Shown: positions 5,212 to 7,260 of the stretch, piece after piece
Position numbering within the stretch: the stretch's first letter is position 1
Layout: each line of letters starts with the position of its first letter
Source: Gemmatimonadota bacterium
Lineage (GTDB): Bacteria; Gemmatimonadota; Gemmatimonadetes; Gemmatimonadales; GWC2-71-9
Length of the DNA: 23,708 bases
Direction of reading: 5' to 3'
Assembly: GCA_039591655.1 (NCBI GenBank)
Contig: JBDHDE010000044.1
Span: 1 to 23,708, forward strand
Translations under genes and position numbers: made by a program
The notes under the pieces: generated by a model
What the model was told of the DNA's origin: nothing
The model's input: only the letters and a program-made list of their open reading frames with translations
Databases searched by the model: none

Positions 5212-5250
5212 GGCAACCTACGGCGCCCCGAACGTAGGTAGGGAACAGCG

Positions 5251-5289
5251 GCGGCCCGGACACCCGTGAGGGTGGCGGGCCGCTTCCCC
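5251..5289 (+). terminator. GC-rich hairpin ending the csp-rpsU transcript (weak U tail)
   Basis: GCGGCCCG-GA-CACCC-GTGA-GGGTG-G-CGGGCCGC with a GNRA loop, followed by TTCCCC. A further 7-bp hairpin lies at 5216-5239. Confidence 0.55.
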
Positions 5290-5297
5290 AAGAGGCC

Positions 5298-5342
5298 AAA
5301 AAAAAGGGGCGACCCGCACACCCGAGGGTGGCGGGCCGCCCC
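5298..5342 (-). terminator. Rho-independent terminator on the minus strand
   Basis: Minus strand GGGGCGGCCCGC-CACCCTCGGGTGT-GCGGGTCGCCCC followed by T8. A G.U pair in the stem is an A/C mismatch on the plus strand. Confidence 0.85.
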
Positions 5343-5726
5343 GCGTACTGGTTACCCGGAGCCAGGGGATTCACTCCCTCTGTTCTTCTCCCCGTCGCCA
5401 CCACTTGGCCTGATACGGCCGCGGGAGGGCTTCAGGGGCTCCGGCTTCCATCCCCAAGCGGCCTGGCCGGGCCGCAAGGTTCACCAGTACGAGCGCTGCG
5501 AGTCAACCGGGTCGCGGACCGGCCTCCCGCACTGCACGCCGAGGCGCCACATCAGCGTGGACGAGGCACGCGACTGGCCTCGTCAGCCTTGGCAGGGTGA
5601 TCACCCGGATCGTCAGGCGCCCGAAGCCCTTGATTGAGTCGGCGCCCTCCCCGGAATTCCCGACCGAGGCCTGTTCAACGGGGCGTGGCAGAAACTGACG
5701 GGGTCTCTACCCCTTTCCCGTTGCAC
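5298..5726 (-). ncRNA. Putative large structured non-coding RNA (~430 nt), family not recognised
   Basis: Bounded by a promoter and a terminator, with no credible ORF. It contains about ten stems, including 9-bp and 8-bp perfect helices, and several G.U pairs valid only on the minus strand. Confidence 0.65.
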
Positions 5727-5732
5727 GCGCAC

Positions 5733-5760
5733 AATCTAGGACCCTGCTCAAGGCGCGCAA
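5733..5760 (-). promoter_or_regulatory. sigma70-like promoter for the putative ncRNA
   Basis: TTGCGC-N16-TAGATT. The predicted +1 (G5726) coincides with the first base of the 5' closing helix. Confidence 0.6.
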
Positions 5761-5803
5761 GCGCCGATGTTTCTTCGGCTTACGCGCTTGGTTGTGGGTC
5801 CGA

Positions 5804-5992
5804 TGTGGATGCACAAGTCCCACGCCACGACCCACTTCCCCGCTCTTTCCACTCCATGTGGAGTTGTGCATAACCGGGATCCCTTCGGGTCCACATGAGC
5901 GCCGCATGGCAGCCGATCCCATGCCCCGCGCAGAACGCCGACCCTGGGAACCCGAGCCGAGCACCGTGTTGGCAAGCGTGAGGTTATCAACA
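5804..5992. promoter_or_regulatory. Cluster of DnaA-box-like 9-mers
   Basis: TTATGCACA (5865-5873, minus; fits TTWTNCACA), TTATCAACA (5984-5992), and several degenerate -TCCACA copies. Confidence 0.4.
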
Positions 5993-6073
5993 GGCAGCTT
6001 CAGTGAGCGGGCGGGTGTGCTCCGGACCCGCTGAGTGGTGTGCAGCAGCTTCTAGGTGAGATGGAGGAGCGGA

Positions 6074-6643
6074 TTACGGTAGCCTGGGCTCGACCTTGAA
6101 GTCCGCAGCCCGGGCGAAGCGCGCGGCCTCGTCGTAGTACGCCATGATACCGCGCTCGACCTGCGCCGTGTGATACGGCCCCCAGGCCCGGAGGGTGTCC
6201 GCCCACACACCGGGTCCCTCCGCGGTCATGGTCTGTTCACAGTGCTCACCCAGAGTCCCGCGGAGAGTACGCATCTGGCCCACGAGCTCCCGGGACTGGG
6301 TGCGGACCCGCTCGTCGGGCGCCCGTGCGGACCGGAAGACAGGCTCGGCGCCCTGCAGCGTCTCCATCGCGGTGACGCACCGATCCCTCAGGCGCCTAGC
6401 GCGACCGACAACGGTCTCCGGTCCCGCCTGGCCCAGGTCGCGTCTGAAGCTCCGGACCTGCACCCGCACTCCGGCCAGTGTATCCCGCAGCATGATCAGC
6501 GCGTCCTTGTAGCTCTGGCGGACGCTGTCCAGGACGGGCTCCGGAGTGTCGGTCATGATGATCTCCTGGGCGCGACACGGACGGCTGAGCCCGAGGAGAA
6601 CGAGCCCGATGGTGCAGCCGAGCTGCAGCGCGCGCGGCGTCAC
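6074..6643 (-). CDS. Hypothetical exported alpha-helical protein
   Basis: N-terminal signal peptide (…IGLVLLGLSRPCRA|QE) and an amphipathic helical body. Its start overlaps the stop of the upstream gene (GTGA coupling). Confidence 0.75.
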   Translation of the reverse strand: MTPRALQLGCTIGLVLLGLSRPCRAQEIIMTDTPEPVLDSVRQSYKDALIMLRDTLAGVRVQVRSFRRDLGQAGPETVVGRARRLRDRCVTAMETLQGAEPVFRSARAPDERVRTQSRELVGQMRTLRGTLGEHCEQTMTAEGPGVWADTLRAWGPYHTAQVERGIMAYYDEAARFARAADFKVEPRLP

Positions 6644-7260
6644 CGCTCGGCCTCCACTTCCTCGTACACGTAGGGCTCGCCGGGATGAGCTGGGGCGAAC
6701 AGGATCCCGCCGCCACTAGTGGCGAACCAGCCAGCCAGCATGTTGTTCGACACGTCCGGCGAGGGACTCTCGAACACGGCCGCCAGCCAGCGCCGCGCAT
6801 GGAGCAGTTCCGGGGCCCGCTTGGACAGCAGCGACAAGACGCCGCCCACGCCCTGTGTCGCCCGCAGGAAATGCGCGACGGCGTGCGCCCGCTGCACGAA
6901 CTCGAACGCCCGCACCCCGGGCTCGTCGTACAGGAGAGAGCCCTCGTACGGGTCGGCCGGCGGGGCATCGATCCGCGGCCCGAGGTAGAGAAACCGCCGC
7001 TTCCCATCCAGGTGCCGCTCCACCACCGCGGCGGCGTCCTCCCCGCTGAGGCGAGCCGCGTGGACCAGATCGGAGTCGTTCAGGACCCCAACGGCCAACG
7101 TCCACTCCAGCGCCGCGAGGGCGTTGTGGAGTGGGCAGCCCAGGTCGGGGTCGTAGGCTATGAGGCGTGGAGCCTCTCCCGCGCGCTCGAAGAAGTATCC
7201 GAGCGCCTCGCCCCTCCCCTGCCAGGTATGCGTCGATCTGGAAATGGCGGGCACCGTCAT
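6640..7260 (-). CDS. Hypothetical cytoplasmic protein (206 aa)
   Basis: ATG with GAGGA RBS, globular composition, and translational coupling to the 6074-6643 gene. Confidence 0.8.
   Translation of the reverse strand: MTVPAISRSTHTWQGRGEALGYFFERAGEAPRLIAYDPDLGCPLHNALAALEWTLAVGVLNDSDLVHAARLSGEDAAAVVERHLDGKRRFLYLGPRIDAPPADPYEGSLLYDEPGVRAFEFVQRAHAVAHFLRATQGVGGVLSLLSKRAPELLHARRWLAAVFESPSPDVSNNMLAGWFATSGGGILFAPAHPGEPYVYEEVEAER

Follow-up and report, generated by a model that had tools for sequence, protein, structure and literature searches.

Large, strongly conserved classes of bacterial non-coding RNA are rare, and those that have been explained are core machines or ribozymes. OLE, ROOL and GOLLD are large and intricately paired, carry kissing loops and have functions that are at most partly known, and OLE has linked protein partner genes. 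According to the available text of PMC12968392 and PMC10861870, raiA RNA acts in trans, is abundant and single-copy, and has a core with two pseudoknots plus stems that may be absent; its P1 helix joins the 5' and 3' ends and has conserved GU and GGU bulges (PMC12968392, available text). We analyzed a locus of Gemmatimonadota whose RNA would count as a new family among the loosely grouped large bacterial RNAs that lack an explanation. The locus lies in a 23,708-nt stretch of contig JBDHDE010000044.1 (assembly GCA_039591655.1), here called the window, in which an undescribed class of large structured RNA had been predicted from the sequence. Almost all genomes of two uncultured Gemmatimonadales families have retained the RNA, and it would add one class to the short list of large bacterial RNAs whose function is unexplained.

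The predicted promoter-like hexamers are present with a 16-nt spacer, and the gene ends in the expected GC hairpin (5342-5306) followed by T8 (Table 1). The gap to the upstream minus-strand coding sequence, put at about 730 nt, is 732 nt from the stop codon of ORF 6074-6643 to the hairpin. The promoter was below the threshold of a consensus scanner (none found), yet it was recognisable in 84 of 94 core loci. The view that the region has no credible ORF was borne out, with only 45 of 739 deletions being multiples of three and with variability lacking a codon period; this non-coding pattern was seen despite long stop-free frames in the GC-rich DNA of the gene (median 131 aa). The minus strand folded better than its dinucleotide shuffles (z -4.03, none of 100 as good), whereas the plus strand did not (z -1.23, 8 of 100 as good), and without the terminator the z-scores were -2.6 and -0.3, respectively. 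At least six G.U wobbles had been claimed for the minus strand; 7 of the 96 pairs in supported helices are G.U. The minus strand from 5726 to 5298 is a real stand-alone non-coding RNA gene with a conserved promoter and terminator, and its boundaries are supported by conservation. A second hairpin, 85% like the terminator of the RNA, stands just downstream (5244-5283); it probably either terminates the convergent csp-rpsU unit or arose by local duplication.

Table 1. Features of the RNA locus, in positions of the window
Feature	Position	Strand	Remarks
RNA gene	5298..5726	-	predicted +1 near 5726 to terminator U-tract; both ends predicted
Sigma-70-type promoter	5733..5760	-	-35 at 5760-5755, -10 at 5738-5733; hexamers conserved, spacer variable
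Conserved A-rich, partly palindromic element	5764..5778	-	immediately 5' of -35; possibly a UP element or an operator
DnaA-box-like site cluster	5795..5992		consensus-like box 5873-5865, inverted pair 5862-5848
5' hairpin domain, optional, variable	5673..5726	-	74% paired, 192 two-sided changes; missing from minimal forms
Long 5' arm, optional	5586..5669	-	5654-5650 with 5609-5605: 96% paired, 87 two-sided changes
Core hairpin A	5560..5584	-	98.2% paired, 7/8 pairs covary; loop 5574-5569 is a PK1 strand
Core hairpin B	5535..5559	-	99.2% paired, 6/8 pairs covary; loop 5548-5544 is a PK2 strand
Core hairpin C	5497..5531	-	helices 94-95% paired; invariant GA in internal loop
PK1 (6 bp)	5574-5569 with 5516-5511	-	loop A kisses loop C; 97.1% paired, 3/6 pairs covary
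PK2 (5 bp), 3' strand	5492..5496	-	right after hairpin C; pairs with loop B, 99.7% paired
3' domain	5344..5491	-	closing helix 5491-5483/5352-5344, two three-way junctions, conserved purine-rich linkers
Intrinsic terminator hairpin and T8	5298..5342	-	99% paired, 347 two-sided changes (124 homologues)
206-aa hypothetical protein gene	6640..7260	-	co-distributed, adjoins the RNA; candidate partner

The prediction of an undescribed, stand-alone, minus-strand structured RNA of no known family agrees with the Rfam searches and with the conservation of its homologues. In the window there was no Rfam match at the gathering level and only terminator-hairpin noise at E<=10, and 20 homologue loci gave only five weak, unrelated matches. 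The hallmarks of RNase P, tmRNA and SRP RNA were said to be missing, and there was indeed no RF00010, ARAGORN or SRP S-domain match; these three RNAs are like the new one in size, conservation and copy number but each has its own gene elsewhere in the same genome (C16:52150-52511, C1:107742-108097 and C17:11045-11142, respectively). No Rfam model of OLE, ROOL, GOLLD or HEARO matched either. The new RNA resembles OLE, ROOL and GOLLD in the traits given above and differs from them in that its core has only about 95 nt and in being chromosomal: it was not found in the phage and plasmid sets searched. No description of the RNA was found in the literature outside subscription journals. The string "Gemmatimon" does not occur in the available main text of the 26- and 50-genome surveys, and the RNA is not mentioned in the available main text of bioRxiv 10.64898/2026.10.21.760802, whose cluster database, like the supplements of PMC12968392, could hold the family unnamed.

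The homologue search suggested in the original prediction was productive: BLAST found the RNA in 46 of 61 genomes, its own included. A sequence model and a structural core model agreed on its presence in 70 of 71 genomes of its own family (f1) and in both genomes of a sister family (f3), and neither model found it in 31 genomes of family f2 of the same order or in 46 of other families (0/77 other phylum members). Four f2 genomes searched at E<=5 were also negative. That it did not turn up in the order's other families is probably why the RNA is uncatalogued. No match was obtained in G031, G003 and G058, which may reflect assembly gaps. An exact-pattern scan of the genome collection gave at least 120 matches; the 80 listed were all titled Gemmatimonadota-level MAGs, mostly Gemmatimonadales. 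Viral contigs contained six pattern matches, the best at <=19.4 bits, and no credible copy, and phage and plasmid records had no match to the RNA. Among 73 genomes, 54 carry one copy, 17 two and 2 three. The second copy of the window's genome (locus L002, C110:805-1249, plus strand) is full-length, 87% identical and has the same promoter elements; it adjoins a DUF6526 gene. A recurring paralogue class of about 316 nt (L022, L091, L092, L096 and L097) is without most of the 5' arm and has a different promoter flank, still with DnaA-box-like sites.

The original prediction took the whole 430 nt as one unit. The unit that is kept is a core of about 95 nt (5584-5492), consisting of hairpins A, B and C and two covarying pseudoknots, and the 5' and 3' arms are optional. 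In an alignment of 63 diverse cores picked from 94, 97.4% of 2375 cells were paired and two-sided changes occurred in 26 of 38 pairs; none of 500 shuffles scored as high, in a control that ignores kinship, and slid controls were 34-45% paired. The covariation of PK1 comes mainly from one pair (18/63), and in PK2 a C-G pair is swapped for U-A in 11 of the 63 cores and in 25 of 124 full-length homologues. The secondary structure and both pseudoknots are supported by covariation. PK1 is weakened in some forms (L073 and L075), and its loop motif is altered in divergent members. The core topology is new, and the RNA is a real class that has no catalogued family.

The kissing loops might instead pair between molecules and build RNA-only multimers like those of ROOL, GOLLD and OLE. 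In the available text of PMC12286853, a ROOL kissing loop first read as a tertiary contact proved to be intermolecular, and loops A and C of the new RNA carry the self-complementary CGCG. On the other hand, there is only one loop-loop contact, the top 110 covarying pairs contained no further long-range pairs beyond kinship noise, and helix lengths suggest that an intramolecular arrangement in two stacks is feasible. We consider such multimers very unlikely.

The core is present in every size class. Full forms have 409-438 nt, forms of 300-355 nt are without the 3' domain or without most of the 5' arm, and in minimal forms of about 171-195 nt (L069-L072, L075, L084 and L110) the core starts directly behind the same promoter and the 3' domain has shrunk to one hairpin; these lengths were estimated from where promoter and terminator patterns fall, and a locus had to show both to be given a length. 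The natural minimal forms of about 180 nt delimit a core fit for synthesis, probing and structure solution. In the full-length alignment (124 sequences, 171 before near-duplicates were removed; short forms left out) the helices of the 5' arm, 3' domain and terminator were 91-99% paired. A second helix of the 5' arm (5646-5641 with 5621-5616) was 91% paired with 129 two-sided changes, and the top covarying pair of the RNA, 5653-5606, lies in the same arm. Ten stems had been listed previously, and four of them (5584/5560, 5531/5497, 5524/5505 and 5491/5344) hold, at 91-99% paired in the 124 homologues. The outer 5' stem also stands, as a variable element with many compensatory changes (Table 1), but its inner hairpin is weak (68% paired). 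Four others found no support across the 124 homologues: GGUCGG/CCGACU (53% paired), GGGU/ACCC (59%), CCACG/UGUGG (69%) and GCGC/GCGU (82%, three two-sided changes), and 483 of 500 shuffles scored as high as the last two. The prediction had included neither of the pseudoknots and had not recognised that the arms are optional, that the promoter carries DnaA-box-like sites or that the 206-aa protein has the same distribution.

The closest described RNA is raiA, which is likewise stand-alone and mostly single-copy, with a double-pseudoknot core, optional stems and a minimal form. Both RNAs have a 6-bp PK1, formed in raiA from the P3b apical loop and here from loop A, and share a 9-nt apical-loop motif in PK1 followed by CCAC. 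The new RNA differs in that its PK1 is a loop-loop kiss with a hairpin-loop partner, in its PK2, in the order of its junctions, and in phylum and gene neighbours. Model RF03072, which scores true raiA loci at 135-203 bits, had no match at E<=10 on the window or on 20 homologue loci. No 5'-3' helix of the raiA P1 type occurred among the covarying pairs, and the 5' arm can be missing altogether. A P4 enclosing P5/PK-L/P6 and the A-rich P3a/P3b internal loop are also missing: CCAC closes locally in hairpin B, and hairpin A has no internal loop. Membership of raiA was rejected on the lack of an RF03072 match, P1, the long-range P4 and the PK-L linker; the new RNA would work like a raiA kind of RNA without being a member.

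A remote, rearranged raiA relative doing the same job in this clade would account for the shared loop motif and CCAC, the two pseudoknots, the optional stems, the own promoter and the abundance. A pattern of the shared motif pulled 19 raiA and 8 new-family loci among the 80 matches listed, but it had been designed with raiA in mind, and raiA had no match in 151 genomes of the phylum in a search that also missed its controls. Cross-scores between the raiA profile and that of the new RNA were below 0 bits, no better than shuffles, and this result, the different pseudoknots, the shifting loop motif and the missing raiA elements make such kinship improbable. If the two are related, the new RNA would be a second, independent handle on the raiA question.

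The core has further traits expected of a trans-acting ribozyme with the logic of RNase P, for which any protein would be accessory or unrelated: a compact double pseudoknot, invariant unpaired residues, a variable periphery and mostly a single copy. The available text of PMC10861870 argues that most large conserved bacterial non-coding RNAs of known function are ribozymes, which also favours catalysis here. However, no catalytic motif was recognised, no Rfam ribozyme model matched the window or the 20 homologue loci, no substrate or guide region was seen, and PK1 is weakened in L073 and L075. A ribozyme is an unlikely reading of the core.

The RNA sequence was found in 24 sequencing runs from 15 studies, 22 of them on record as RNA, all with small word shares. 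In the four runs (three studies) examined, contigs covered bins 5346-5721 in every run, none covered 5722-6755, and bins 5252-5345 were touched in only one; the runs were chosen for holding the RNA sequence, and their contigs come mostly from relatives and carry no strand, ends or level. One 186-nt piece in run X1 was identical to the window. Peak depths of the RNA were 3937, 879593, 53213 and 769932, versus 286, 553, 4670 and 2229 for tmRNA in the same runs, an excess of one to three orders that is only a hint because the runs were chosen for the RNA and depths sum over organisms. The RNA seems to be prominent in soil and sediment metatranscriptomes. Single-contig "back joints" were not counted as support for a circular RNA.

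The region upstream of the RNA is rich in DnaA-box-like 9-mers, which average 2.9 per 250 nt there (84 loci); the corresponding figure downstream of the RNA is 0.15 (81 loci), and the genome-wide average is 0.27 per 300 nt. Up to two mismatches to the consensus were allowed, most promoter boxes have two, and the ranking of boxes used hexamers chosen after the sites were seen. The promoter boxes are similar to the degenerate ones that lie between dnaA and dnaN, and the RNA locus is 39-135 kb from dnaA in all four long contigs. The RNA site was considered as oriC and rejected: CTA trios occur between dnaA and dnaN and none at the RNA promoter, and the minimum of the GC skew coincides with dnaA or is closer to it in three of four genomes (in G176 at the dnaA-dnaN point) and is unclear in one. 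The skew minimum and the trios at dnaA place the RNA site near the origin but not at oriC. Probable oriC regions, in which CTA trio repeats accompany degenerate DnaA boxes, were seen at C16:~55500-55800 in the window's genome (G000) and between dnaA and dnaN in G176, G005 and G162. A second protein of the Bac_DnaA family, with two tandem domains, is encoded at C8:35647-37248 of G000 and was present in five of five genomes searched.

A terminator right after the structure, the DnaA-box-like sites and the distance from dnaA could also belong to a cis element, such as a riboswitch leader, a 3' element of the 206-aa mRNA or oriC DNA. The gene next downstream of the RNA is, however, not fixed: by a crude gene caller it was convergent in 44, on the same strand in 31 and unclear in 19 of 94 loci, and these neighbours varied in kind. 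Since there is no fixed downstream gene, a riboswitch is unlikely. The RNA has its own promoter and is inverted relative to the 206-aa gene in the sister family, the skew minimum points to dnaA in three of four genomes, and the CTA trios lie between dnaA and dnaN. The cis-element reading is already largely refuted and keeps a minimal probability; the RNA is very probably a stand-alone RNA acting in trans. An antisense regulator is also unlikely, since the core is almost fully paired and nearly free of long unpaired conserved stretches. The suggested link to translation or stress through the adjacent csp and rpsU genes did not extend to other loci: of 101 loci, the window's own is the only one in which these two genes adjoin the RNA. 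In G005 (L380:2265-4162), the genes of archease and RtcB are convergent with the RNA at a distance of 1-3 kb downstream; they were not seen in the three other long contigs examined.

The neighbour that does recur is the gene of the 206-aa hypothetical protein. The protein was found in 94 of 96 f1 and 3 of 3 f3 genomes and in 0 of 101 others, and in 72 of 73 genomes its gene was no more than 2 kb away from a copy of the RNA, while in the remaining one the RNA sits at the start of a contig; a control neighbour gene was found in only 15 of 71 genomes. In f1 the gene lies upstream of the RNA in the same orientation; in f3 the two converge. One genome (G226) has the RNA with no protein detected, and extra RNA copies stand without the gene, with their own promoter and terminator. 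The co-distribution of RNA and protein is that of one clade and so is not independent evidence, and the two genes may simply be neighbours in a stable block. In certain lineages only, the 206-aa gene is separated from the RNA by the gene of a 189-aa hypothetical protein with a signal-peptide-like start (6074-6643, minus strand).

With a median pI of 5.7 and a net charge of -5, the 206-aa protein is acidic, and its structure model was confident (pLDDT 85.7), with a two-fold repeat (hhalign 87%). It belongs to no Pfam or NCBIfam family, and had no PDB sequence match below E 0.03 and no Atlas match. Comparison of the fold gave a best Z of 5.4 (rmsd 3.2, 70 residues aligned) and Foldseek E>=4e-3, and a low-confidence model of half the protein gave a best Z of 4.9; there was no clear fold match and none suggesting RNA binding. 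Only four longer forms of the protein were found; two of them, P0123 and P0124, are annotated PF08309 and are possibly fusions or misassemblies. The linked protein is a concrete candidate partner, and we propose it tentatively, as a possible but doubtful assignment.

The explanation that we favour, with about even confidence, is a free-standing RNA with a 95-nt double-pseudoknot core that would act in trans as an abundant, stable, protein-binding scaffold or decoy; that it serves as a non-catalytic protein-binding scaffold is in itself an evenly balanced expectation. Transcription would start from the sigma-70-type promoter, and DnaA bound at the upstream boxes could modulate it so that output follows the replication state. 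Stacking of hairpins A and B, PK2 and the helix that closes the 3' domain would give a single long helix; hairpin C would lie alongside, held there by the kiss between loops A and C, and the invariant unpaired residues, such as the GA of hairpin C, would form a docking or binding surface. The RNA would accumulate as a stable particle and bind a protein through this invariant surface, the 206-aa product being the likeliest candidate. A bolder and somewhat unlikely version is a new housekeeping ribonucleoprotein in a dominant, uncultured lineage of soils and sediments, possibly a ribozyme, in which an RNA of new fold and a two-repeat protein of new fold would be controlled by DnaA near the origin, reach a level at or above that of tmRNA and couple the replication state to a core process.

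An abundant, free-standing RNA with a clade-wide housekeeping pattern also recalls 6S and Ms1, and the RNA could in principle substitute for them by binding RNA polymerase. RF00013 detects no 6S RNA in the two RNA-bearing families (0/71 and 0/2 genomes), as such a substitution would predict, but 6S was equally unseen in families without the RNA (0/31). The new RNA is multi-hairpin and knotted, whereas 6S is a long rod with a central bubble, a shape that the core does not have, and a rod-shaped candidate exists in the same genome. This substitution is extremely improbable. The candidate (G000 C6:76885-77035, plus strand) is a long rod with a central bubble that weakly matches the 6S RNA of distant members of the phylum and is syntenic with one of them, and it is likely a divergent 6S RNA that RF00013 misses in this class.
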